A DNA stretch of 60,640 bases, filler included, from 5 parts of 5 records of this genome joined end to end with filler, not necessarily neighbours in it, one strand, 5' to 3'. Positions 10,260 to 23,347 are shown, numbered from the whole stretch's first letter. The notes: a model not told the origin generated them from the sequence alone. Numbers and translations: made by a program.

Positions 10260-10260
10260 G

Positions 10261-10491
10261 GGAGACAATGAAGTCGAACGCTATCTAGAGTACTTAGTGT
10301 TAAAACAAAACGTTGCACCGCGTACGCAAGCCACAGCACTCAATTCATTGTCATTTTTATACAAGCACATAATAAAAAATGAACTGTCGTTAAACTTAAA
10401 TTTTGCCCGCAGTAAGAAACAAGCAAAACTACCTGTAGTTATGACGCCAGAAGAAGTTAAGCTGCTTATGACTCATTTAAATAAGCGTTAT
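10261..10491 (+). pseudogene. intI: Integron integrase (IntI) N-terminal fragment, truncated before the catalytic domain
   Basis: 'EVERYLEYLVLKQNVAPRTQATALNSLSFLYK...ARSKKQAKLPVVMTPEEV' is typical of IntI. Similarity stops where 'LLYGxGLR' should follow. Confidence 0.85.
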
Positions 10492-10531
10492 GGACTTCAC
10501 ATAGTTTGCTGGACGGTACCCGCTAACTTAC

Positions 10532-10588
10532 TTTGGGGCAATGGCGAGTCAGCAGATAACTTGCCAATGGACAGAAACGCGCTAAATT
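10532..10588 (+). repeat. Dispersed ~57-bp direct repeat, copy 1
   Basis: TTTGGGGCAATGGCGAGTCAGCAGATAACTTGCCAATGGACAGAAACGCGCTAAATT. Confidence 0.75.
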
Positions 10589-10764
10589 ATTTGCTCTAAT
10601 TCGATAAAAAAACAGGCCAATGATGAACACAAATAATTAAATTTCTATCCCTTACCAACAAATTTCTTTACTATTTTTTAATTTTTAAGTCTATGTTTTA
10701 GTATAAAAATGGTTATTATATAGGTGAATAAATAACCTAAACCATTACAGAGGATGATATACAT

Positions 10765-10887
10765 ATGTTCATTAAACCAGGACCGAAAAGAGAAAATGAT
10801 GATGGAACGCCGGATAAAAGACAACGTACTAACACACCAGATAAACATAAGCCGTTAAAACGACATGATCACCAACGAGGTGATTAA
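10765..10887 (+). CDS. 40-aa hydrophilic microprotein (not in the ORF track)
   Basis: AGAGGA RBS, then MFIKPGPKRENDDGTPDKRQRTNTPDKHKPLKRHDHQRGD*. More GC-rich than its flanks and followed by a hairpin with a T-run at 10936-10980. Confidence 0.6.
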   Translation: MFIKPGPKRENDDGTPDKRQRTNTPDKHKPLKRHDHQRGD

Positions 10888-11006
10888 TTTAGATCTAAAT
10901 CATTTGAAGTTATTATAATTTTGTTACTATTTTTTGGGAAAATAAACTCCAAGTTTTATTGGTTTTTTATTTTTCCCTTTATTTTCCACTGTACTATCCA
11001 ACTCAT

Positions 11007-11063
11007 AACGGGACAAAGGCGAGTTATATACATAACCCGTCTATTGGACAGAAATGAGTTAGG
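11007..11063 (+). repeat. Dispersed ~57-bp direct repeat, copy 2
   Basis: AACGGGACAAAGGCGAGTTATATACATAACCCGTCTATTGGACAGAAATGAGTTAGG. Confidence 0.8.
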
Positions 11064-11161
11064 ACGAATGCGTGCTTTGTGCCAGAAGCAGCCGTTAAAT
11101 GAAACCTATAAAATCAAAGTCACAGAAAGCATTGATCGACCCCATTGATCAGTTTTTGAAA

Positions 11162-11192
11162 GTATGTCGGATGACGCCTTCGCCGCCCGACA
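11162..11192. repeat. REP-like hairpin
   Basis: GTAT-GTCGGATGACGCCTTCGCCGCCCGACA: TGTCGG/CCGACA stem with a near-GTAG tetranucleotide. Confidence 0.45.
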
Positions 11193-11238
11193 ACAAATGA
11201 GCAGAAAACCCAACTTACCATGTTTGCCCTATTTTTTG

Positions 11239-11751
11239 TTAAAAGTCACTCATGGCGTCTAACTTTCCTTCTCCACGCAAGCTGGCTTCAAGTTGTTCAG
11301 ACATAGTCGCAAAACTACTTAATATTTGTTCATAACCATATTTAGAAGGAAGACTCCAAGCTGAGCATTCCGATATAGCTGGTATACCTGGAAGAAGTTC
11401 AAGTTGCAAGCGGGCTTTACTATCTTTTGCAACAAATCTAATATCATATTCAGAGTAACAATAAGGGCTTAGCGACGATGTTAACATCTTCCACCGAATA
11501 AGCCCTTTACCCATTAAGGTTCCGCTGGATTCGTCCTCAACTCGCAGAACAGCTTTACTATCACCATAAGCAGTTGCAATATAATTTCTAGCCCTCTTCC
11601 ACAATTCAGCTTTATCACTATCAAGATCGATATATGTAAAAGTTTCCGCTTGCACGTTTGATTGAGATATAGGGTAATCTGGGGAATTTGGGTTTGTTGC
11701 ACACCCTAGAAATACCAAGCAGGCAGTAAAACTTATTGAAAGCTTTTTCAT
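11239..11751 (-). CDS. Lipoprotein, DUF4468-like, cassette-like gene
   Basis: Lipobox 'FLGC' and 'KAELWKRARNYIATAYGDSKAVL..EDESSGTLMGKG'. The stop codon lies in TTTTAAC. Confidence 0.75.
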   Translation of the reverse strand: MKKLSISFTACLVFLGCATNPNSPDYPISQSNVQAETFTYIDLDSDKAELWKRARNYIATAYGDSKAVLRVEDESSGTLMGKGLIRWKMLTSSLSPYCYSEYDIRFVAKDSKARLQLELLPGIPAISECSAWSLPSKYGYEQILSSFATMSEQLEASLRGEGKLDAMSDF

Positions 11752-11779
11752 TAGTTTAAATTCTTATTAAAATATTCAC

Positions 11780-11842
11780 AGCTAACCGCTCCCAAGGAGG
11801 AGCAAAACCAATTTTTTGTCCCACGGATTTACCTTTTTACAT
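11780..11842 (-). mobile_element. Degenerate attC-like recombination site
   Basis: Minus strand: ATGTAAA (contains the stop) AAGGTAAATCCGTGGGACAAAAAATTGGTTTTGCTCCTCCTTGGGAGCG-GTTAGCT. Has R''/R'-like ends and fills the space between two tandem genes. Confidence 0.5.
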
Positions 11843-12454
11843 GCACTCTTGCAGTTTTAGTACAAAGGTTTGACCATCCATTTCCGAAGGAATAATAATC
11901 TCTGTAGAATATTTTAGAATAGCGCTTTCATTTCCTATTTTGTACTGTAGTAAGCTAAATAAATCCCAAAGACTAGATAAAAAAGCGTCAAGAGCCTCAT
12001 CATTTAGGCTTACTCCGCATCGTGTGCCCGAAAAAACTGTATGCAAGTCATTGTGAGATAAAACTTTGTTTCTGTAATTTTTTAAACCACTAGACTCAAA
12101 TTTATCCTTAATATCTGACAAACTGCTCATTATATCAGAGTCTTCAAGTAGTGAATGATTAGTTATGATGTATTCGAATGACAAGTTATCTTCACCACAA
12201 GATGACTTAGGGTCTAGCAATCGAGCCAATTTAGAATAGATGTTATTAATTAGACATTGTTGATAATTAGCAAATACCCAATCACTGAAATCTCTTAGGA
12301 TTTTTACATTTTGCTCAGTACCAAATATCTGCCGATAATACGTCAAATCAGTTGATACATTTACGAGTAAATTCTTCATTTGTAACAATGAGTTCAATAC
12401 ATGCTCCTTGCGCATATAGTCATAATTATCCCCACACACTGTTATCCTTTGCAT
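11837..12454 (-). CDS. HEPN domain protein, AbiU2-like (putative RNase/defence)
   Basis: 'LARLLDP..S.GEDNLSF' plus the HEPN RX5H motif 'RNKVLSH(ND)'. The start may be Met14 at 12415. Confidence 0.7.
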   Translation of the reverse strand: MQRITVCGDNYDYMRKEHVLNSLLQMKNLLVNVSTDLTYYRQIFGTEQNVKILRDFSDWVFANYQQCLINNIYSKLARLLDPKSSCGEDNLSFEYIITNHSLLEDSDIMSSLSDIKDKFESSGLKNYRNKVLSHNDLHTVFSGTRCGVSLNDEALDAFLSSLWDLFSLLQYKIGNESAILKYSTEIIIPSEMDGQTFVLKLQECM

Positions 12455-12989
12455 TTCAGAAAGTTAGCTAAAAAGTCAAAAACACCGTTTGGAAACGTAA
12501 TGAGTTTGAAATAAATATACAGTAGAAGATAGAGTAAATAAACATACTTTATATTGGCTTAGATACCTTTATAAAGGGTTTATGAATTAATGGGTTCACA
12601 TTGCAAAGTGCATGTTTTAGGTTGTAACTGCCTTATTCACGTTCAAAGCTGACCTGTAAAGTAATTGCTTCAACTTAACCTTGATTTTCGAAGTGCAGCA
12701 GAGGAAATCATAATAGATGCAATACAAGATTATAAGGCCCTAGATTTTAACGGAGACTTTAAACCATACAATTTGCCAATCGAGATCCGTCGTGTGCTAA
12801 TTGTATCTTTCTAGAGGATGCGTTCGAATGAGCATAAAAGAACAGGGTATCGCGGTAATGGAGGTGTTGCTTAATGAACTACCCTCCTTACTCTATACTT
12901 ATACTATAAACATAAGAAATATACGGGTAAATTTTGTAGGGCAAATCACTGTGAACAGAATGTGTTTAGTGGGTCGTCTACAAACACGC

Positions 12990-13044
12990 TTTGGGGCAAA
13001 GGCGAGTTATATTTATAACTCATCACTGGACAAAAGCGTTTTAG
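12990..13044 (+). repeat. Dispersed ~57-bp direct repeat, copy 3
   Basis: TTTGGGGCAAAGGCGAGTTATATTTATAACTCATCACTGGACAAAAGCGTTTTAG, with a perfect GAGTTATA/TATAACTC stem. Confidence 0.8.
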
Positions 13045-13091
13045 AGACTAAGGACAGCTTAAAATATAAGAGGTAAACGAATTAAGTAAAC

Positions 13092-13478
13092 TTGGCTGTA
13101 CAGAAAAAGCTTGAAGTATTAGCGCTAATTGAAAAACTTTGAAGTGTCAGTACAGCCTCACGTCAAAGTGGCGTATCGCGAGATACTATTCACCGTCACC
13201 TAAAGCTGGTTAAGCAAGGAGGGCCTGATACTTTAAAACGTCAAGAGACTCCAAACCTGCGACATAAAAATTGTGTAGATCAAGCGATAAAGGATGCGGC
13301 TGTGGAATTCTCAATTGAGTATTCACATCTTGGCCAGCAGAGAGTCTCAATTAAGCTGACTAAGGCACTTGGTGTTAATATTACTAGCATGTGGCTTAGA
13401 AATAACGAAAATACTACCGCATTGAGAGTTGAAAGATCGCAAGTGTCAAAAGGAGCAGCACAAACTCTAGCCAGTTAA
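13092..13478 (+). pseudogene. IS481-family transposase-like N-terminal HTH relic
   Basis: Manual translation: 'KLEVLALIEKL*SVSTASRQSGVSRDTIHRH..QGGPDTLKRQ..PNLRHKNCVD..HLGQQRVS..SMWLR'. In-frame TGA at 13140; no DDE domain. Confidence 0.7.
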
Positions 13479-13564
13479 CTCACTGGCTGGCATAATATTT
13501 ATGTTAAAGTTACTCGGTAATTAGACCTTCATAATCCCTTGGTAAACATACGAATACAGTTTAT

Positions 13565-14077
13565 TTACTCTACATTTTTTCGTTGAGTACCAAACCATTC
13601 TTTTAACTCTACAGCATATGTTCGATGTGATTTTGTGTAAACCTGTTGAGACAACATTGAGATATTGTGTCTAGCCAGCTCTTTCTCCATTTCAACTTGT
13701 GCTTTTCGCATAACGGCTTGAATCCCACACATCCCTTTACATGCCCAACTTGGCACATCATCTGAAAAAATATCCATTCGTTGGCGAATTTCTTTGCAGT
13801 CAAAAATGGATTTTTCACCATCAATTGCCCGCACAATATCAAGCACATTTATGTCTACAGGTAGCTTTGCTAACTTAAAGCCTCCTTTACGGCCTTCTGT
13901 GCTTTCGACTAACCCTGCCTTTGAGAGCTTAGTAAATATTTTGCCTAAATATTCATAAGGAACGCCTTGCAATTTAGCCGCTTCCCTAACCGACATGACA
14001 ATAGGCTGGTCGTGTTCATCGAGCATATTTACTAAACAATGAATACCATATTCCACACCTGAACTATAAAACGCCAT
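13565..14077 (-). CDS. Rrf2-family regulator, RsrR-like
   Basis: 'GVEYGIHCL', 'GRKGGFKLA', 'FDCKEIRQR' and 'CGIQAVM'. Confidence 0.88.
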   Translation of the reverse strand: MAFYSSGVEYGIHCLVNMLDEHDQPIVMSVREAAKLQGVPYEYLGKIFTKLSKAGLVESTEGRKGGFKLAKLPVDINVLDIVRAIDGEKSIFDCKEIRQRMDIFSDDVPSWACKGMCGIQAVMRKAQVEMEKELARHNISMLSQQVYTKSHRTYAVELKEWFGTQRKNVE

Positions 14078-14152
14078 GCTTTTCCTTTAAAACTTTTATT
14101 TGAAGTAGTAGTTGCAACTTGTTTCCTATCTTAATCGAAACAACTAAAAAAA

Positions 14153-14180
14153 TAAACTCCGATTAATGTTGTCGGATTTA
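14153..14180. promoter_or_regulatory. Candidate Rrf2 operator
   Basis: TAAA(C)TCCGA-N9-TCGGATTTA inverted repeat in the divergent intergenic region. Confidence 0.55.
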
Positions 14181-14236
14181 ATTTCATCTTGTATGATTCA
14201 TTTAAATCTTAATTGGCAAAAAAATAGGAATAAATA

Positions 14237-15436
14237 ATGAACAAAGAAATCGTAATTATTGGTGCTGGTTTTGCTGGCATGTGGGCTGCGTTAAGTGCAG
14301 CTCGTTTAGCTAAGCTGCAAGGGGCAGAAAATATTCAGGTTACTGTTATTGCTCCTGTTGCAGAGCTGCGTGTCCGCCCTCGCTTTTATGAAGCCAACGC
14401 TGGGTCGATGGTATCGCCACTAATGCCGGTGTTTGATGTTATGGGCGTGAGCTTTGTAACAGGTAAGGTTAGTGATATCGATTTAAAAAATAAAATCGTT
14501 CATTTTGTGGATGGCAATAACACGAAGAGTAAACAATATGACAGACTAGTGCTCGCTGCAGGTTCGAATCTACGAACAGATCTTGTCAAAGGTACAGCAG
14601 AGCATGCTTTTGACCTCGATCAAATCGAGTCAGCTATTGTACTTGATCAACACATCAACAATTTAGCAAATCAACCATTATCAAATGCCCGGAATACTGT
14701 CGTGGTTTGTGGTGGAGGCTTTACTGGTATCGAAATGGCAACTGAATTGCCAGCAAGGCTCAAAGCAAAATTTAATGACAACACCCCAATAAAGGTCATT
14801 ATTGTTGAGCGTAGTAATCAAATAGGTTCAAACTACAGTAAAGAACTACAAGATGTCATTAAGCAAGCTACAGATGACTTAGCAATTGATTGGATGCTTG
14901 ATGCACAAGTCGCTGAGATTTCAGCTCATGGAGTAACTTTGGCGTCTGGTGAAGTAATTGAATCAGATACAGTTATTTGGACTGCTGGCGTCAAAGCCAA
15001 TGACCTCACAAATGTATTTCCTGAGCAAAAAGGCCCACAAGGGCGATTGAAAGTTGAACCATCGTTGCAAGTTATAAATGAAGACCACATCTTTGCAACA
15101 GGGGATGTTGCTTATGCATTAACCGATAATAAAGGTAATCACGCACTGATGACTTGCCAGCATGCAATACAAATGGGTAAGTTTGCAGGTCACAATGTTG
15201 CTGCGAGCTTGATTGGTTGTGAAACAATTGATTACAGGCAAGAAAACTATGTAACTTGTTTAGATCTTGGAGCGTGGGGGGCTGTTTTTACAGAAGGTTG
15301 GGACCAACAAGTTAAGATGGTCAAGGAAGAAGCAAAAGCCGTCAAAATATCAATTACTAACGAATTAATTTATCCACCTAAAGCTGATATTGATATTATC
15401 CTTAAACAAGCTGACCCACTAGCTCCTTTTGTGTAA
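14237..15436 (+). CDS. NAD(P)/FAD-dependent oxidoreductase, type II NADH dehydrogenase-like
   Basis: Two Rossmann motifs (GAGFAG, GGGFTGIE), 'WTAG' and 'FATGD'. Confidence 0.88.
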   Translation: MNKEIVIIGAGFAGMWAALSAARLAKLQGAENIQVTVIAPVAELRVRPRFYEANAGSMVSPLMPVFDVMGVSFVTGKVSDIDLKNKIVHFVDGNNTKSKQYDRLVLAAGSNLRTDLVKGTAEHAFDLDQIESAIVLDQHINNLANQPLSNARNTVVVCGGGFTGIEMATELPARLKAKFNDNTPIKVIIVERSNQIGSNYSKELQDVIKQATDDLAIDWMLDAQVAEISAHGVTLASGEVIESDTVIWTAGVKANDLTNVFPEQKGPQGRLKVEPSLQVINEDHIFATGDVAYALTDNKGNHALMTCQHAIQMGKFAGHNVAASLIGCETIDYRQENYVTCLDLGAWGAVFTEGWDQQVKMVKEEAKAVKISITNELIYPPKADIDIILKQADPLAPFV

Positions 15437-15445
15437 ATAAAAAAA

Positions 15446-15474
15446 TCCCCATAAATAATTTATATTTATGGGGA
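15446..15474 (+). terminator. Hairpin after the oxidoreductase
   Basis: TCCCCATAAATA...TATTTATGGGGA stem directly after the stop. Confidence 0.55.
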
Positions 15475-15796
15475 CCTAATTGAGTTGATGCATGGCGAAT
15501 TAAAGTATCTATAAGTAATATGAAAAGCTGGTAGCTTACGAAGAAATCATGGGAGGCAATATTTTCTAGTTCAATTTTTTGAGCTGAAAACGCAAGTAAA
15601 ACACCTGATTGAAGATGCCTCGTGACATAATAAGTTTTATCGTCAATCTAAATAGTTTTGTGTCAAACCACTCTGGCTGAGTTGCGCTATTACTAATAGT
15701 TATACAGTAGTCGAAGTACATGCATCGCGGAACAAGCGAAATCATTTCATAAATAACAATGCCCCCTTCCCAGTAGTATTTTACAATCTATAAAAT

Positions 15797-15824
15797 AATT
15801 AATATACTAGCGAGTATGTTAATT
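15797..15824. promoter_or_regulatory. Palindromic operator upstream of doxX (candidate TetR site)
   Basis: AATTAATATACT-AGCG-AGTATGTTAATT, 11 of 12 positions complementary. Confidence 0.55.
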
Positions 15825-15842
15825 GTTGATAAAGGCTAAACT

Positions 15843-16253
15843 GTGGAAAACTATATTATTACTTTTTTAATACATCCCGCTACACTCGTTGTAGCTAAAG
15901 TAGTTTTAACTTTTGTATTTTGGATGGCGGGACTATTTGGTTTATTCAATTTCAAAGTGATTTACCAGGAAATGGTTGATGTCAATCTTCCTTCTCCGCG
16001 ACTTTTCGCGATCCTTACTATCATGACCCAATTACTAGGTTCAGCACTTATCATTACCAACTTCGGCGGATATGGCTGGGCCGGTGCTGGGTGGTTGGCG
16101 ATATTTCTTTTGTTAACCATCCCGCTAGGTCATCCATTTTGGAAGTTTGAAGAGCCGAAACGTACGCATGAGTTTCATATTGTACTTGAGCACGTAACAG
16201 TAGTTGGAGGTCTTATGCTGGCAGGTATCCTTTCAGTATTACCTGTGTCATAA
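15843..16253 (+). CDS. DoxX family membrane protein
   Basis: Four TM segments, 'HPFWK' and 'EHVTVVGGL'. Confidence 0.85.
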   Translation: MENYIITFLIHPATLVVAKVVLTFVFWMAGLFGLFNFKVIYQEMVDVNLPSPRLFAILTIMTQLLGSALIITNFGGYGWAGAGWLAIFLLLTIPLGHPFWKFEEPKRTHEFHIVLEHVTVVGGLMLAGILSVLPVS

Positions 16254-16595
16254 GTACTTTCTGGCATAAGAAATAAATATTATGCATTTGTTGACTTTCA
16301 ATTAAGCGTACACTTAATTTTTGGTGGGCGCTTAAAAAATTTAATTATGTGCTCCTTCTTGAGCATTCACGACGCTTCTACCTGATGTTATCTATGATAA
16401 CAACTCATTACGTCTCTTGTAATCGATGCCATAGCTTTCATTTAATTAATTATTTTGACAGTTAAGTGAGGTCACAAACCTTTTCAATCCTGATGATTTC
16501 TAGTAAAAATAGGAGCTATAAAGTTGGTTTTTAAGTAGACTTACGTCTATGATATTTACAGGTTATACGCTCAGCCAGAGTAGACTGGAGTTAAA

Positions 16596-17219
16596 GTGAT
16601 TGTAGAAAAAAAACAACGAGGCAGGCCTAAGGACAATACAAAGAAAGTAGCCATACTTGATAGTGCCCGTAATTTATTTCTAGAAAAAGGCCCTGATGTT
16701 ACTTTAGAAGAAATAGCGGCATCTTCCGGAGTTGCAAAAGCGACACTTTATGCAAAGTTTAAGGATAAAAAAAGTTTAATAGAAGCAGTAATACGCCGGG
16801 AATCAGACCTTACAATAACAGAGGAGCAGTATATAAGACTTGGACAAATTCCCGTTTCTCAAGCGCTCAATGAGTTTGGCTTGCAATACTTAGGCTTTAT
16901 TAATAACCGTGACTTATTAAATTGGGATCGGTTAATTTCAGCGTTAGAAATGAAAAATAATGAGCTACCAAAACGTTTTTTTGATTTGGGTCCCGGTCGT
17001 GGCCAGAATCTTCTAACAAAATTAATTGAACAGGCTGTTATTAAAGGACAGCTACCAAAATGTGAACCAAGCTATGCAGCAGATATATTGACGGGCCTTT
17101 GGCTTGGTTTTGTGAACCTTGAAATTAAGCTGGGTGTTCGCCCACCTCTGACAGACATTGAAATTGATGAGCGTGTAAAAAATGGCGTTAGAAATTTCTT
17201 CAAAATTCTGTCTGTTTAA
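16596..17219 (+). CDS. TetR/AcrR family regulator
   Basis: 'RGRPKD..K..AILDSA..LF' and HTH 'LEEIAASSGVAKATLYAKF'. Confidence 0.9.
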   Translation: MIVEKKQRGRPKDNTKKVAILDSARNLFLEKGPDVTLEEIAASSGVAKATLYAKFKDKKSLIEAVIRRESDLTITEEQYIRLGQIPVSQALNEFGLQYLGFINNRDLLNWDRLISALEMKNNELPKRFFDLGPGRGQNLLTKLIEQAVIKGQLPKCEPSYAADILTGLWLGFVNLEIKLGVRPPLTDIEIDERVKNGVRNFFKILSV

Positions 17220-17704
17220 AGTTTATTTAAGGTCCAAAGACCATACTTCGCGCATTAGGAATATATGGGATTTTATAACACCACATTGTTCTGATTAACC
17301 GTTCTTACAAATCAGGTTCATGTGGAAAATCACAACATGTGTAATAGTCTTATTGAGGCTACCACGGTAATTTCTCGCCAGGTAGAGTGAATTGGAGTCT
17401 GTCGTTGATAAAAACGCCGAATTAAGCCAGTTTTTCGTAACCGTCGTTCATAACTTAACATTACAAGGCAGTAATCTCTCTGTGTCAGGCTCAGGGTGAG
17501 TAAACACTTCGAGTAAATGCACTTGGGCCACGGTTACAGTTTTCTTAAAAGCAAATTAGTGGATTAAAAGAAATTATTCGTCTTAAAAAATGGGGGGTAA
17601 TTGTAAATTAAATTCAAACAATGCGGTATTCATTGAAAATTAGGAACGAGGTGTTAATGAAGATTATATCGCAACATCGAATATCTAGGTTTGTATTTAT
17701 AATA

Positions 17705-19087
17705 TCAAAAAAACGATAGCACGGCTTTAAAACGAGAGGCTAATTCATAGCATTGAGCTTCATCTTTTATATTAGTGAAGCTTAAAATGACCCCTGGTTC
17801 CTGTTGTGAATTAGCCCATTGAGATAACCCTTGGGCAAATAAACCCGCCTCTATCATCTTTTTAGCTAGCGTATTGTCGTTAATGCTTTTATCTGTGAAC
17901 ATCACAATCATATTCATGCCACCGGGCTGTGGGTCGATATTGATTGCAGAGCCTAAAACTTTTTGAAATACAGTTGCCATTATGTTGCGGCGTTCCCTAT
18001 ATAGCTTTCTCATGCGTTGAATATGACGAGAGAGGTGACCTTCTTTTATGAAAGAAAGAACCGAGGCTTGAGTCAACGCCGACACATTGCCAGCAAAGAG
18101 CTCTGATACTTGCTCAAAGGCGGTCAGTTGGCTTGGTGGTACGACAATATATGCTAAGCGTAGACTTGGAAACATGACCTTACTGAACGTTCCTGAGTAA
18201 ATCACTCTATTTTGTGTATCTATGCTTTTTAAAGCTGGTAAAGGAAGCCCTGTATGTCGATATTCGCCGTCATAGTCATCTTCAATAATCCACCGTTTAT
18301 TAGTTTCCGCCCAATTGAGTAAAGCTTGCCTTCGCTCTAAAGAAAGGTATACACAGGTCGGGCTTTGATGGGCTGGTGTTACAACAACTGCATCAGGTTT
18401 AGATTCGGAGTTAAAAATAATACCATTTTTATCAACCGGCGTTGGGAGCGGGGTTAAACCGTTGTTGATCAATAGTTGACGCGTTAGAGGGTAACCGGGA
18501 TCTTCCATTACAACTGAAGCATGTTTTTTTAATAAAACATGGAAAATCCAATTTATGGAATTTACATATCCTGAAGTAATAAACACTTGAGAGGGCTCAC
18601 ATTGAATACCACGTGATAACTGCAAATATTGAGCAATTGCTTCTCTTAATTGCGGGTTACCATAAACTGATGGGTAGGCAAGATCATCTTTATGTATATT
18701 CCTTGCACACCTAGCAGTCATACGAGCCCAAACTTCTTTTGGAAACTTATCGAGTGCTGGAATACCTAGTTGAAATGGCAGAACTTGAGGTATTTCTACC
18801 TCAGATTGAAGCCCAGGTTGACGAGCTGTCGTTTTGCTTTGTAATACCCGAGGCTGTGAATGAAGTTTTTCACTGACAAGTGTTCCAGCTTGGCCTTTTG
18901 ATTCGAGGTAGCCTTCGGCTTTTAGTAGCGCGTAGCCTTCTTCAACCGTCCCTCTTGAGACACCCATTTCTTTTGCTAATGTTCGTGTAGAAGGAATTCG
19001 TTCGCCAGGCTTTAATGTGCCTTTTAAAATAGCGCTATGAATTCGTTGGTAAACTTGTTTGTAAGCTAATATTTTAGGCATCAACAT
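17705..19087 (-). CDS. MocR/GabR family PLP-dependent GntR regulator
   Basis: GntR HTH 'IPSTRTLAKEMGVSRGTV', plus 'EDPGY', 'IIEDDYDGEY' and 'GTFSK'. Confidence 0.92.
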   Translation of the reverse strand: MLMPKILAYKQVYQRIHSAILKGTLKPGERIPSTRTLAKEMGVSRGTVEEGYALLKAEGYLESKGQAGTLVSEKLHSQPRVLQSKTTARQPGLQSEVEIPQVLPFQLGIPALDKFPKEVWARMTARCARNIHKDDLAYPSVYGNPQLREAIAQYLQLSRGIQCEPSQVFITSGYVNSINWIFHVLLKKHASVVMEDPGYPLTRQLLINNGLTPLPTPVDKNGIIFNSESKPDAVVVTPAHQSPTCVYLSLERRQALLNWAETNKRWIIEDDYDGEYRHTGLPLPALKSIDTQNRVIYSGTFSKVMFPSLRLAYIVVPPSQLTAFEQVSELFAGNVSALTQASVLSFIKEGHLSRHIQRMRKLYRERRNIMATVFQKVLGSAINIDPQPGGMNMIVMFTDKSINDNTLAKKMIEAGLFAQGLSQWANSQQEPGVILSFTNIKDEAQCYELASRFKAVLSFF

Positions 19088-19097
19088 ACCCGCTTAT

Positions 19098-19157
19098 TAT
19101 GGACTCTAAATATGGCCTATAATAATAGTTAATTTATGGCACTTATTATAATCCATA
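19098..19157. promoter_or_regulatory. Candidate MocR binding region (direct and inverted TATGG repeats)
   Basis: TATGGAC (19098), TATGGCC (19111), TATGGCA (19135) and inverted CCATA (19153). Confidence 0.55.
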
Positions 19158-19219
19158 TAGCACGATATTATAACCACCTTATGATAATTGGTAATTCAAA
19201 AATAACCATTTGAGGAAAT

Positions 19220-19822
19220 ATGAACGTATTATTGATTAACGCTAGCCCGAAGAAAGATCAAGCATCTACGCACCTCATTGCCCAAGTTATGGTGAACACC
19301 TTATTGGATAACGCAGAGGTTAAGCTAGACACTCTCGATGTGACAATGCTGCCTCATATAGATCGGCATTATGCTGAAGTTTTATGTGGTTCAGCAAGCC
19401 CACATACTGATTCTGCCAGCCTCAAATTATCAGATGGGCTTATTGCTTCTCTTGAAAAAGCTGACCTACTGATCATTACCTCTCCGATGCATAATTATAC
19501 ATTACCTTCTAGCTTAAAGTGTTGGCTAGATTATGTAGTCCGAGCAGGAAAAACTTTTGAGATAACTAACACCGGAAAGCTACCATTATTAAAAGATAAA
19601 CCGGTGTATATTTTGATTTCTTCAGGGGGGATCTTTTCTGGTGAATTGGCATATCAACCAGACTTTTTCACGCCCTATATGAAAGCGATTCTCGCGACGA
19701 TAGGGTTAACTAAATTGCATTTCTTCTCTATTGAGGGAACTGCGGGTGATCCAGAAGTTGTAGAGCAACAAATATATAAAATTCAGCAACAAGTATGTGA
19801 TCACTTACGTGCGAGTATTTGA
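19220..19822 (+). CDS. azoR: FMN-dependent NADH azoreductase / quinone reductase
   Basis: 'LLINASP', 'SPMHNYTLPSSLKCWLDYVVRAGKTF' and 'SSGG'. Confidence 0.85.
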   Translation: MNVLLINASPKKDQASTHLIAQVMVNTLLDNAEVKLDTLDVTMLPHIDRHYAEVLCGSASPHTDSASLKLSDGLIASLEKADLLIITSPMHNYTLPSSLKCWLDYVVRAGKTFEITNTGKLPLLKDKPVYILISSGGIFSGELAYQPDFFTPYMKAILATIGLTKLHFFSIEGTAGDPEVVEQQIYKIQQQVCDHLRASI

Positions 19823-19904
19823 TGTTCTTCTAATTTCTCTAGTCTTTATGGCTGTATTTACAAAAAACAGTAGTTATAAATTTCAATATAAATAGGATAA
19901 TGTT

Positions 19905-20969
19905 ATGTCAATACGATTGGTTCGTTGGATGAAAACATCTTTACTAACACTATTATGCTCAATTACTCTCATGCAGATGGCGCATGCAACCGATGATTAC
20001 TCTGCTGATGGTGAGCGAAGAGCAAAATCAGCGGGTGAAAACTTAGTTGGTACACCTGCCCCTCAAATGACTGTAAAAACAATTGATGGCAAAGAGATTG
20101 ATTTGGCTGAAGTGTATGGTAAAAAGCCGGTCTACATTAAGTTCTGGGCTACATGGTGTGTCCCTTGTCGCGAGCAAATGCCGGGCTTTGAAGAAATTTA
20201 CGAGAAATATGGCGAGCAAGTTCAAGTTATCGCGATTAATACTGGTATCAGCGACAATGTAAAATCGGTAACCGCGTTTCGTAAAAAAATGGGGTTAACT
20301 ATGCCAATTACAATTGATAATGGTGAATTAGCACGTGCTTTTCACTTACGTGTTACGCCTCAACATTTGTTGATCGATAAAAGTGGCAAGTTCGCTTATT
20401 TTGGTCATGTTGATGACAAAGAATTCCACCGAGCTTTAGATAAAGTAGTAGCTGAAAAACCAAGCCAACAAGCGGTGATAAACCCAACTTTTGTTGATAA
20501 CAATTCAGGTTATCAAGTAGGTGATAAAGTGTCAGACATGACTTTCTCCACTATTGATAACACAAATCTCGATGTAAAGTTTAATACGCCAACCAGTAAA
20601 AAAGTTGGTATGGTTTTTTTTGGTCCTTGGTGTGAATGGTACTTAGAAGAAACCGAACCAACCACGTCTAAAGCGTGTACTCAAGTGCGTGAACTATTAG
20701 AGCAGAAATCAAAATCATCAGAAGTACAATGGGTCACGGTATCGACGAACCTATGGTCTTCAATAAATGATCTAAACGATTATCGTAAAAGCTATGGTAC
20801 AACGTTACCTATCGTATTTGATAAAGATAGCTCACTATTCAAGTTGTTTGGTGTGACCCAACTGCCAACCATCACACTAATAGATTCTGAAGGTAAAGTG
20901 ACTATGAAGTCCTCAATTCAAGATGGTGACTTTAGTCAGGCATTAGAAACCATTTCTTCATTTAAATAA
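19905..20969 (+). CDS. Exported two-domain TlpA-like redoxin
   Basis: Signal peptide. Domain 1 'FWATWCVPC'; domain 2 'FFGPWCEWY'. Confidence 0.8.
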   Translation: MSIRLVRWMKTSLLTLLCSITLMQMAHATDDYSADGERRAKSAGENLVGTPAPQMTVKTIDGKEIDLAEVYGKKPVYIKFWATWCVPCREQMPGFEEIYEKYGEQVQVIAINTGISDNVKSVTAFRKKMGLTMPITIDNGELARAFHLRVTPQHLLIDKSGKFAYFGHVDDKEFHRALDKVVAEKPSQQAVINPTFVDNNSGYQVGDKVSDMTFSTIDNTNLDVKFNTPTSKKVGMVFFGPWCEWYLEETEPTTSKACTQVRELLEQKSKSSEVQWVTVSTNLWSSINDLNDYRKSYGTTLPIVFDKDSSLFKLFGVTQLPTITLIDSEGKVTMKSSIQDGDFSQALETISSFK

Positions 20970-21014
20970 TTGGTAGCTTTTAACCATATAATGCTATTTA
21001 AAAATAGGCGCACA

Positions 21015-23177
21015 ATGAAATCATCTTTATTACGATCATTGAAAAAATGGACAGCTTGTTTTAACTCTGTCTATTCATTTAAACCGAGTACTTTTTTAAA
21101 ACAAACACTTTTGTTCGTCCTCTTAGCATGCTCATCACATGCGATAGCTACGGGTCAAGGTGATACTCAGCGCCTATTATCAGTTTCTATGATGACAGAA
21201 TCCGGACACATAGCATCTGACATGACGCAAGATCTAGCTCTGATAATGACACCTAAAGAGGGTTGGCATGGATATTGGGCTAACCCGGGTGATGCCGGAT
21301 TTCCGACCCGCTTTGATTGGCATTTGCCAAAAGGGATTGAAGCAGGTGAAGTAAAATACCCCGCGCCAAGCCAACTTGTGACCAGTGATATTATGAATTA
21401 TATCTATCACGGGCAGTATGTATTACTTACTCCAATAACAGTTAGTAAAGCTATTGCGGTGGGAACTTCAGTACCTATCAAAGTCGATATAAGTTATTTG
21501 GTTTGTAATCCGACATCTTGCTTGCCAGAACAACAAACGGTAGAGCATACATTTACTGTTGGTGAAGACTCCCAATTGTTATTGGATAAAAAATCGAGTA
21601 ATAACTCAAATAAAGAACTGTTTGATCAATGGCGTCAAAAACTGCCACAACCAATGGCAGCTGTGGGGCGTTTTTCGGTCGATAAAAGTAAATTAACACT
21701 CGCATTACCCTTACCAAGTAGCGTGGATATTGAAGGTGCGCATATTTACCCCGTTATCAATGGCATGATTGTTAATAATGCGAAACAAGCTTTGCAGCAT
21801 AAGGGTGATGAGCTTTTGATGCAAACTCAAGTTGGAGACAATCTAGAACCTGTTTTTAAAGGGGTCTTGGTACTAAAAAGCGGTATCGGGCTTAGTTTTA
21901 GTGCAAATAAAACCGAGGCTATCGCTTTTACCCCGACCGTTGATAACGCTAAAGATACTAACGGGCCCAATTCATGGTGGTTAGCCATTACTGCTTTGTT
22001 AGGAGCAATCTTAGGTGGTCTACTGCTTAATATTATGCCGTGTGTGTTTCCTATTCTTAGTCTGAAAATACTGAGTCTTTCTCACCAAAGTTCAGAAGAA
22101 AGAGCCAAAATAGGCGCAATAGCTTACACTTTAGGTGCAGTATTAGTGTGCCTTGTTCTTGGCGCTGCTATTTTAGGCTTACGGGCTTTGGGGCATCAGA
22201 TTGGTTGGGCTTTTCAGTTACAAAGCCCAGTAGTGATTTCGGTCTTAATCGTATTAATGAGCGCAATAGGGTTCAATCTAGCTGGTTTATTTGAAATTGG
22301 TACTTTAACTTCTGGCTCAAAACTGCAAGATCAAAAAGGTCCTATGGGGGATTTCTGGACAGGGGGTCTAGCGGCCCTTATTGCAACACCTTGTACTGGT
22401 CCATTTATGGCAACCGCACTAGGTGCTGCCTTAGTATTGCCGATGAGTATTGCATTAATGATCTTCGCTGGCTTAGGTTTTGGTATGGCATTGCCGTTTC
22501 TTTTGGTGAGTTTTATACCGAAGCTAAGAACGTGTTTACCTAAGCCTGGTGGTTGGATGATAACCGCTCGTAAAATACTTTCTATACCGATGTTTATCAC
22601 AACTCTAGGATTGGTTTGGATCCTATTACGTCAATCAACTGATACGTATGTGATGATGATTTTAACGACGACAATGTTATCCACATTTGGATTATGGTTA
22701 ACTGGTGCATGGCAACAATCTCAACATAAAAGAAAATGGTGGCCTGCGCTTCTATTTACCTTCATTCCTTTGTTGCTCTCAATTTATACAATACCTAATT
22801 CGGATGAATTGAATGCTAGTTCAGTGCAAAAAGAAGGTACGCAAGTTTTGAGCTTTGATCAGAATAAATTAACTGAGTTGCGCGCTAAGCAGGATATGTT
22901 TGTATATTTCACAGCTGATTGGTGTTTAACTTGCAAAGTTAACGAGAAAACGTCGATTGATCGTGATGAAGTGCAACATGCATTTAAACAAAATAATGTT
23001 GCAGTTATGGTCGGTGATTGGACTAATGGAGATAGTCAGATAACGGAATTTCTATCGCAACAGGGACGCTCAGGTGTACCACTTTATTTATGGTATAAGA
23101 AGGGCGTAGATACTCCCGTTGTATTGCCGCAAGTCCTAACACCGTCAATATTAGTGGATCATGCAAAGCAATACTAA
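21015..23177 (+). CDS. DsbD/ScsB-family thiol:disulfide interchange protein
   Basis: N-domain 'WHGYWANPGDAG' and 'CNPTSC'; TM 'MPCVFP' and 'ATPCTGP'; C-terminal 'FTADWCLTC'. Confidence 0.9.
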   Translation: MKSSLLRSLKKWTACFNSVYSFKPSTFLKQTLLFVLLACSSHAIATGQGDTQRLLSVSMMTESGHIASDMTQDLALIMTPKEGWHGYWANPGDAGFPTRFDWHLPKGIEAGEVKYPAPSQLVTSDIMNYIYHGQYVLLTPITVSKAIAVGTSVPIKVDISYLVCNPTSCLPEQQTVEHTFTVGEDSQLLLDKKSSNNSNKELFDQWRQKLPQPMAAVGRFSVDKSKLTLALPLPSSVDIEGAHIYPVINGMIVNNAKQALQHKGDELLMQTQVGDNLEPVFKGVLVLKSGIGLSFSANKTEAIAFTPTVDNAKDTNGPNSWWLAITALLGAILGGLLLNIMPCVFPILSLKILSLSHQSSEERAKIGAIAYTLGAVLVCLVLGAAILGLRALGHQIGWAFQLQSPVVISVLIVLMSAIGFNLAGLFEIGTLTSGSKLQDQKGPMGDFWTGGLAALIATPCTGPFMATALGAALVLPMSIALMIFAGLGFGMALPFLLVSFIPKLRTCLPKPGGWMITARKILSIPMFITTLGLVWILLRQSTDTYVMMILTTTMLSTFGLWLTGAWQQSQHKRKWWPALLFTFIPLLLSIYTIPNSDELNASSVQKEGTQVLSFDQNKLTELRAKQDMFVYFTADWCLTCKVNEKTSIDRDEVQHAFKQNNVAVMVGDWTNGDSQITEFLSQQGRSGVPLYLWYKKGVDTPVVLPQVLTPSILVDHAKQY

Positions 23178-23280
23178 AACGAATAGAAATACATTTTCTG
23201 ATCTGGTAGGAGTCATTTTTATCAATTTATTAAATGGCTTTCGTCTAAAGCGAGTTTGAGCGACTGTCTCCTCACGCTCT

Positions 23281-23340
23281 TTTGAGGCAAGGGTTAGTCA
23301 AGTTAGAACAACGCTCGCGTATACGGAAACGCCCAAAGTT
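23281..23340 (+). repeat. Dispersed direct repeat, copy 4 (most degenerate)
   Basis: TTTGAGGCAAGGGTTAGTCAAGTTAGAAC...ACGGAAACGCCCAAAGTT. Hand alignment gives 20/29 and 14/18 identity to the two halves of copy 1. Confidence 0.55.
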
Positions 23341-23347
23341 ATTAGCT

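Follow-up and report, generated by a model that had tools for sequence, protein, structure and literature searches.

Integron-like capture of promoter-less genes is, to our knowledge, known only through folded attC sites. The outer boxes of attC, R'' (RYYYAAC) and R' (GTTRRRY), stand in inverted order; crossover takes place between the G and the TT of R', so that both arms of the hairpin travel with one cassette, and the sites measure about 57–141 nt, with extra-helical bases that lengthen one arm. Another kind of gene module is found on Acinetobacter plasmids, where pdif sites of the Xer system, which share the 28-bp, 11-6-11 layout of dif, bound recombinase-free gene modules in many contexts and flank each module in inverted order. 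Here we describe a family of 28-nt sites in a 60.6-kb stretch of DNA (the window), which consists of five contigs joined by N spacers; the contig under study (10260–23347) is the second of the five. The existence of the site family, its anatomy, its place at module boundaries, the position of the exchange point and a link to one clade of the integron integrase gene intI are supported directly by the comparisons reported below. Labels beginning with G, L and X denote genomes, loci extracted from genomes and sequencing runs, respectively.

A preliminary description of this contig had placed four same-strand copies of a ~57-bp unit at functional boundaries. A covariance model (R1) was built from 13 copies of other genomes together with window copies 2 and 3, which as members of the model score 72.3 and 79.5 bits, respectively; copy 1, which stands outside the model, scores 38.4 bits (E 2.7e-8). 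Copies 1–3 are thus related by R1, on the same strand and at the positions first described. Copy 4 gives no R1 match at E ≤ 10 and is only a half site, its likeness to the family being limited to the first ~18 nt, a degenerate left arm and the core GAGGCA. The ~57-bp unit itself had to be replaced. When all family members in the loci under study were lined up, a shorter form, the commonest one, was found, and each full copy is made of two 28-nt sites. A search of the whole window for the 28-nt pattern, with ≤2 substitutions allowed, gave six matches; these make up the three doublets, every one on the + strand, and the other four contigs contain none. The sites are as follows.

10524–10551, + strand: site 1a, with arm TAACTTACTTT, core GGGGCA (10535–10540) and inner arm (R1 and pattern search).
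10557–10584, + strand: site 1b, with inner arm, core TGGACA (10568–10573) and degenerate right arm GAAACGC+GCTA (pattern search).
10999–11026, + strand: site 2a, with arm CAACTCATAAC, core GGGACA (11010–11015) and inner arm (R1 and pattern search).
11034–11061, + strand: site 2b, with inner arm, core TGGACA (11045–11050) and right arm GAAATGA+GTTA (pattern search).
12982–13009, + strand: site 3a, with arm AAACACGCTTT, core GGGGCA (12993–12998) and inner arm (R1 and pattern search).
13016–13043, + strand: site 3b, with inner arm, core TGGACA (13027–13032) and right arm AAAGCGT+TTTA (pattern search).
23272–23289, + strand: half site ("copy 4"), with degenerate left arm and core GAGGCA (23284–23289); no R1 match.

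In the basic site, arms of 11 nt, TAACTCRTTTT and, inverted, AAAAYGAGTTA, enclose an asymmetric 6-nt core, GGGGCA or TGGACA. Over the 83 distinct sites in the studied loci the arm consensus is TAACTCGTTTT - GGGGCA - AAAACGAGTTA; the core is GGGGCA in 43, TGGACA in 33 and some other sequence in 7, and the outer boxes are near-invariant (T66 A79 A70 C81 / G77 T78 T78 A81). In the long form two 28-nt sites follow one another in the same direction, 33–35 nt apart, the first with core GGGGCA and the second with core TGGACA, and together make a 69-nt imperfect palindrome whose two arms are equally long. The inner arms of the doublet, AAGGCGAGTTAT and ATAACNCGCCTT, are complementary and so give rise to the central GAGTTAT/ATAACTC hairpin, which had been taken for a feature in its own right and is the pairing of the inner arms of two adjacent sites. 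RNAalifold predicts this inner stem alone on the long form. Copies 2 and 3 fold better than shuffled sequences (z −2.3 to −3.9), and copies 1 and 4 fold no better than shuffles (z +0.4 to +1.4).

In 140 Pseudoalteromonas genomes the pattern TAAC-N7-GGGGCA-N7-GTTA has 114 occurrences, spread over 66 genomes, and its reversed control has 2; in a sample of 301 genomes of the family, the same 28-nt pattern has 31 occurrences, spread over 21 genomes, and the control 5. These counts and the R1 scores rule out chance likeness of the copies, the outcome that modelling the copies and scanning genomes with them had been proposed to decide. A site-bearing genome carries 1–6 of them. A scan that covered one genome for each of 185,579 species found the exact core CAAAGGCGAGTTAT-N4-ATAAC, which is the inner core of copies 2 and 3, at 11 loci, 10 in Pseudoalteromonas and 1 in Colwellia. 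The sites carry no annotation in public records, and a BLAST search of plasmids matched 5 records, none of them annotated at the match. Full-text literature searches found no description of the sites, supplements, possibly with attC lists for the genus, lying outside their coverage. An Rfam search of 10260–23347 gave zero matches, a home-made generic AAC...GTT hairpin finder returned noise only, and a 180-kb scan between the two intI copies of genome G001 revealed no dense site array.

Two further elements accompany sites at many loci. A small hairpin with compensatory changes (GAGCCG/CGGCTC, GAACCG/CGGTTC) stands right after GTTA in many modules, for example in L033, L034, L035 and at window 11058–11095, and is followed by TGTGCCA or its complement. 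In addition, a conserved stretch of ~45 nt (..GCTCAAAGCCGACCTTAGAGCATTTACGTTAAC) precedes many left arms.

The position at which neighbouring DNA changes was mapped in ungapped pairs that share one flank, with offsets counted relative to the last base of the core. This systematic comparison yielded 46 left-shared and 6 right-shared pairs. Six of the left-shared pairs belong to an unrelated TGGACA close to attI, their breaks falling at +43 to +45; for the remaining 40, homology ends between −3 and +16 (9 at 0, 6 at +2), and in the right-shared pairs it ends at −6, −8, −17, −19, −24 and −50. The later and earlier of these values reflect the likeness of arms throughout the family, and the 6-nt core is the sole interval that fits all break positions. 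The breaks therefore place exchange in the core, at −6 to 0 within the resolution of the comparisons, as for strand exchange in a spacer. Homology between genomes ends inside or at the edge of the core and not at the G|TT of integron attC.

Two chromids with flanks that are 95–98% identical carry different genes at the same place (1.6 kb versus 5.8 kb), and the swap is bounded by '..TCACTTT TGGACA|' and '|GGGGCA AAGG..'. The cargo consists of two hypothetical genes in one chromid, and of IS630, a LeoA-like GTPase and a DUF726 protein in the other. Two intI copies of one genome have a common 3' flank through GGGGCA and diverge thereafter. Among metagenome contigs of 4 runs, each from a different study, breaks fall at 10534/10535, at 11043/11044 and within 13000–13009, and also at 10578, in site 1b. 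At 11043/11044 the right arm of site 2b is joined to another left arm; this right arm and its flank are also common to L001. Runs X2 and X3 hold site 3a without site 3b and have loose ends at 13008/13009. The public runs consist of contigs only, in which rare forms are not visible, and none shared half or more of the words of the stretch; a lack of circles or of cover in them carries no weight. Genome pairs, the chromid swap and metagenome contigs thus all contain the junctions inside the site that the preliminary description had anticipated. The metagenome contigs contain one joint that 'goes back', as in a circle, but the likeness of doublets 2 and 3 accounts for it. A hotspot beside HupE/UreJ and DUF6488 genes holds different cargo in four genomes (L064, L065, L009, L034).

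The sequences between the sites of the window were compared with other genomes, and the following modules were delimited.

10585–10998, + strand: module A, with 84% identity over 10597–11016 to genome G011 (L020).
11062–12981, − strand: module B, with a DUF4468-like open reading frame (ORF; 11239–11751) and an AbiU2/HEPN ORF (11837–12454), both on the − strand (Pfam).
23290–23347, − strand: the first 58 nt of a GNAT acetyltransferase module (GNAT by Pfam), the gene lying past the contig end.

In G011, module A stops at the core of site 2a, with different DNA beyond. Contigs of runs X1, X2 and X3 carry module B between other flanks. The GNAT module, ~670 bp long, is 98.5% identical to L017, L018 and L019 of three other genomes; the shared stretch extends from just after GGGGCA through TGGACA, with four different left arms before it (the window included) and three different right arms after it. 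Judged by these comparisons, modules A and B behave as modules. The recurrence with other neighbours of the GNAT module, of A and of B, as well as the chromid swap and the metagenome contigs, bears out the claim that the sites stand at module boundaries. The claim that copies 3 and 4 enclose captured cargo found no support, most of that stretch being conserved chromosome in genome G087. Within module A, a 40-codon ORF (10765–10887), rich in Lys, Arg and Asp, has few changes in G011 (L020) and may encode a real small protein; it has no Pfam match. Upstream of the AbiU2 gene, ~85 nt of the window (12498–12583) give a ~75% match to some 20 Pseudoalteromonas genomes.

At the left end of the contig, the first doublet adjoins a remnant of intI.

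10260–10491, + strand: 5' fragment of intI, from the contig edge to codons ..NKRY (Pfam Phage_int_SAM_4, E 1.2e-12).
10487–10540, + strand: junction piece, whose GTTAT overlaps the last intI bases and which extends through the left arm and the core of site 1a.

The first 232 nt of the contig are 90–97% identical to intI of six Pseudoalteromonas genomes, and in all six the homology stops at 10491, ~30–40 nt ahead of copy 1, in agreement with the distance of about 40 bp described before. After ..NKRY the gene breaks off, and a 48-nt piece, which finishes in the left arm of site 1a, is attached to it within GTTAT. The junction piece is 96% identical over 54 nt to G027 (L016 2002–2055), where there is other DNA on both sides, and the left arm of site 1a (TTAYTTT) is also found after intI in L012 and L014. 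By its close relative in G078, the window intI belongs to a clade whose protein ends in ..LSKIF and whose stop codon lies inside the left arm of a site. In this clade, 21 of 33 gene ends, as counted from a listing in which a filter on the last pattern base misses about a quarter of gene ends, run into CTAGC-N7-GG[GA][GA]CA, with many different right arms beyond. In three species a single site stands between intI and the same conserved chromosomal genes. Across the genus, intI is above the family cut-off in 107 of 140 genomes, and strict-pattern sites occur in 16 of 25 genomes with the ..LSKIF clade versus 50 of 115 others. The 5' ends of truncated intI copies followed no clear junction rule. 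In the complete genome G001 both intI copies (L012 13037–13978 and L014 6714–7655) have an in-frame stop at the same place (..DIDFD*), and both are probably inactive.

The terms attC and CALIN (a cluster of attC sites without an integrase) are used here in the sense of the definitions set out in Cury et al. (2016; PMC4889954). As in such clusters, the sites described here are short, palindromic and of one orientation, stand between promoter-poor accessory genes with anti-phage cargo, have outer TAAC/GTTA boxes, lie beside intI or its remnant and would be served by an enzyme in trans. They differ in that exchange occurs in the central 6 nt instead of at G|TT, that the basic unit is 28 nt, that the two arms are not co-inherited and show no compensatory pairing, and that they lie 3' of intI over its stop codon, whereas canonical arrays of ~90–120-nt attC lie 5'. 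Left arms, rare 7-nt spacers included, remain with the left flank, as right arms do with the right flank. Complementarity between the inner 7 nt of the two arms of the same site was 4.651 versus 4.657 in shuffles (n = 83; 2797 of 5000 shuffles reach it), and a separate covariation test also found no covariation between the arms. As a positive control, 37 canonical attC sites that lie upstream of intI within the genus gave 5.76 versus 3.75 in shuffles, 0 of 5000 of which attained the former value. Canonical attC of the genus measure 66–120 nt, and canonical R' motifs are found 5' of the same genes whose stop codons the 28-nt-type sites overlap. Because the arms separate, compensatory pairing is absent and the canonical sites are longer and 5' of intI, the sites would not be ordinary attC. 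The preliminary description had said as much, and the crossover and arm-pairing tests uphold it; its stated reason, that the site does not look like attC, fails on the TAAC/GTTA boxes and the link to intI, which are attC-like.

The anatomy of the sites, with inverted arms of 11–13 bp, an asymmetric spacer of 6–8 bp and exchange in the spacer, is shared with Cre/lox of phage P1 and with Xer/dif. The right arm ..ACGAGTTA is one inserted base away from the lox repeat TATACGAAGTTAT of the P1 record. Unlike in either system, many sites here stack different modules, and two core variants alternate. The Xer/dif reading was ruled out on sequence, the dif-like site of the genus, TATAATTTATATTATGTTAAAT, being unrelated to the sites in sequence and register; with respect to pdif modules, the cores here stand in direct order and the arms are unlike Xer arms. 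The 193 ORFs of ≥100 aa that lie no more than 5 kb from a site, at 27 loci, include no gene family that recurs in more than 3 loci. The earlier remark that no cognate enzyme is visible in the window is borne out in that the modules encode none.

Ends of the insertion sequence (IS) groups IS200/IS605 and IS91/ISCR, as well as repetitive extragenic palindromic (REP) repeats with their REP-associated tyrosine transposase (RAYT), have in common with the sites a hairpin near the junction, the lack of a target duplication and accumulation on one strand; however, no HUH (histidine-hydrophobic-histidine) gene is associated with the sites. A search of 5 site-bearing genomes detected Y2_Tnp in none, a result that says little since the control genomes were silent too. 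Y1_Tnp genes are present in 5 of 5; on either side of the RAYT-like ones stand GTAG-type REP repeats that belong to these genes and have no relation to the sites. Of the two origins first proposed, the tyrosine-recombinase site is the better fit, and an IS91 or HUH-type end is left without support. REP/RAYT repeats as such were ruled out, given the other repeats carried by the RAYT-like genes and the presence of 1–6 sites per genome, as was an IS or miniature inverted-repeat transposable element with target duplication, given that the flanking cores differ systematically. The GTAG-type REP repeats around the RAYT-like Y1 transposase genes of the genus (L083–L087) stand in tandem, and their family differs from species to species.

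From these comparisons we infer tyrosine-recombinase chemistry on a duplex substrate, and a candidate for the acting enzyme. The sites may be core-type sites of a tyrosine recombinase that acts in trans to excise and insert modules, a reading to which we give an even chance of being correct. Modules would lie between cores, each opening with a right arm and closing with a left arm, and the recombinase would exchange strands within the core. Two sites in direct order would release a circle that carries one hybrid site, and this circle could enter any other site, so that modules become stacked head to tail. The enzyme could be the integron integrase itself, which is the leading single candidate, or another tyrosine recombinase.

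Several observations weigh against a tyrosine recombinase acting in trans. The cores that flank a module are mostly unlike, TGGACA on the left and GGGGCA on the right, where identical spacers would be expected, and unlike cores on either side of a module are poorly tolerated by classical two-strand exchange. No recombinase gene recurs near the sites, and intI is linked to them by position only. The genus has no conserved Cre-like protein, the matches in 39 of 140 genomes being weak and the best (E 1e-17) coming from a single genome, and the sites are about as common in genomes without an intI match (at least 6 of 17, versus 66 of 140 overall). The outer TAAC/GTTA boxes fit R'' and R' of attC. 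At the hotspot beside HupE/UreJ, the core in L034 is reversed relative to that of L064 with respect to the same neighbour genes. The pairs of the systematic comparison are not independent, about a dozen intI ends giving most of them, and the likeness of arms within the family blurs the ungapped mapping. No circular junction was seen in public contigs, which cannot show rare forms.

Other origins were weighed as well. One is an ordinary integron attC cluster beside a decayed integrase, in which folded single strands would cross over at the G|TT of R'. Outer boxes such as CTCTAAC...GTTAGAG fit RYYYAAC/GTTRRRY, the 69-nt palindrome of the long form folds better than shuffles, the sites adjoin intI in the window and at 21 of 33 gene ends of one clade, intI itself is widespread (107 of 140 genomes), and the cargo (AbiU2, AbiH, PIN, GNAT, small ORFs) is like that of chromosomal integrons. 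The breaks, however, fall neither at TAA|C (−13) nor at G|TT (+8), and the arm compensation that is strong in the 37 canonical attC of the genus is absent. Moreover, the common 28-nt form is far below any attC length, the long form has equal arms and thus no extra bases on one side, and the sites lie downstream of intI instead of in an array that starts from attI on its 5' side; we consider this origin quite unlikely. Some of the same evidence could be accommodated if the integron integrase acted on non-canonical sites, folding them into a hairpin that is cut at the boundary between loop and 3' arm, with intI as the last gene of a module. This would account for the stop codon of one intI clade inside a left arm and for the TAAC/GTTA boxes; the joining of the window intI to the next piece within GTTAT is like integrase events at secondary sites, and unlike cores would be tolerable if one strand were exchanged and the junction resolved by replication. 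Yet we know of no such cleavage position for integron integrases, a 28-nt hairpin has room for one protein-binding box only, and the sites are not enriched with that intI clade (16/25 versus 50/115), which makes this explanation improbable, if somewhat less so than ordinary attC.

A hairpin cut in its loop is also what a HUH nicking system (IS200/IS605, IS91 or Rep-like) would use, cleaving after GGRCA and pasting modules in series. The break at the 3' edge of a 6-nt loop between inverted arms, the stacking of modules on one strand and the small compensating hairpin after many right arms are in keeping with it, but no such gene lies close to the sites, the RAYT-like Y1 genes have REP repeats of their own and Y2_Tnp is missing from the five genomes searched, to which, with the silent control, little weight attaches; such a system has a slim chance of being responsible. 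Finally, the sites might have no part in recombination and be a motif conserved at gene ends, for instance a hairpin or a site of protein binding, with modules exchanged through DNA uptake and homologous recombination in the flanks. The lack of an enzyme and the mere 1–6 copies per genome would be explained in this way, and exchange at the HJ51/JSTW hotspot could have used conserved flanks. Against this, many unrelated right arms follow a single left arm (the intI end), with the joint exactly at the core, one module stands behind four unrelated left arms, and a 6-nt core with 11-nt arms is too short for homologous recombination, so that a gene-end motif is very unlikely to be the answer.

If the sites are indeed acted upon by a tyrosine recombinase in trans, marine bacteria would possess a second route to integron-like gene capture, via short duplex-type sites, by which anti-phage and other accessory genes are moved between species; the GNAT module is an example, given its 98.5% identity between the window and three other genomes. 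A wider proposal, which is possible although we doubt it, is that Pseudoalteromonas and some relatives contain a second gene-cassette system beside the integron, with 28-bp lox/dif-like sites, exchange in a 6-nt core and a first site fused to the stop codon of one intI clade. Either the integrase would then have a second, non-attC mode, or the integron platform would itself be a cassette of the other system. Tools based on attC structure would miss or mislabel such sites, which provide a simple 28-nt marker for variable hotspots, and the association of an integrase clade with a site at its own stop codon is a testable link.

The remainder of the contig, to the right of doublet 3, contains the following.

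13053–13560, + strand: IS remnant, with 68–85% identity to sequences in many Pseudoalteromonas genomes.
13326–23241, no strand assigned: chromosomal backbone, with 97–99% identity to G087:C23 except for a 2.2-kb indel at 15526–17715 (genes by Pfam).

The reading frame of the IS remnant is broken, with 13 stops within 13085–13480. The backbone encodes Rrf2, a pyridine-nucleotide oxidoreductase, DoxX, TetR, a GntR-aminotransferase, a flavodoxin-like protein, an AhpC/TSA protein and DsbD. This stretch, previously called a redox module, is ordinary conserved chromosome in the sister genome G087, and its status as captured cargo is unsupported; homology to G087 stops at 23241, ahead of the half site, and the contig itself stops at 23347. 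The 2.2-kb stretch (DoxX and a TetR regulator) is missing from the otherwise 97–99% identical G087, and no site was found at its edges. The identity of 13326–15525 and 17716–23241 to this Pseudoalteromonas genome points to a Pseudoalteromonas as the source of the contig. Because the contig is Pseudoalteromonas-like and has a G+C content of 33–42%, versus 52–64% in the other four contigs, the assembly or bin behind the window probably mixes organisms.

In two other genomes, genes for a group II intron reverse transcriptase are located a few kb away from sites (L030 530–2044 and L006 5509–6762); L030 further contains a Tn7-like TnsA and an AbiH/PIN gene pair between sites.

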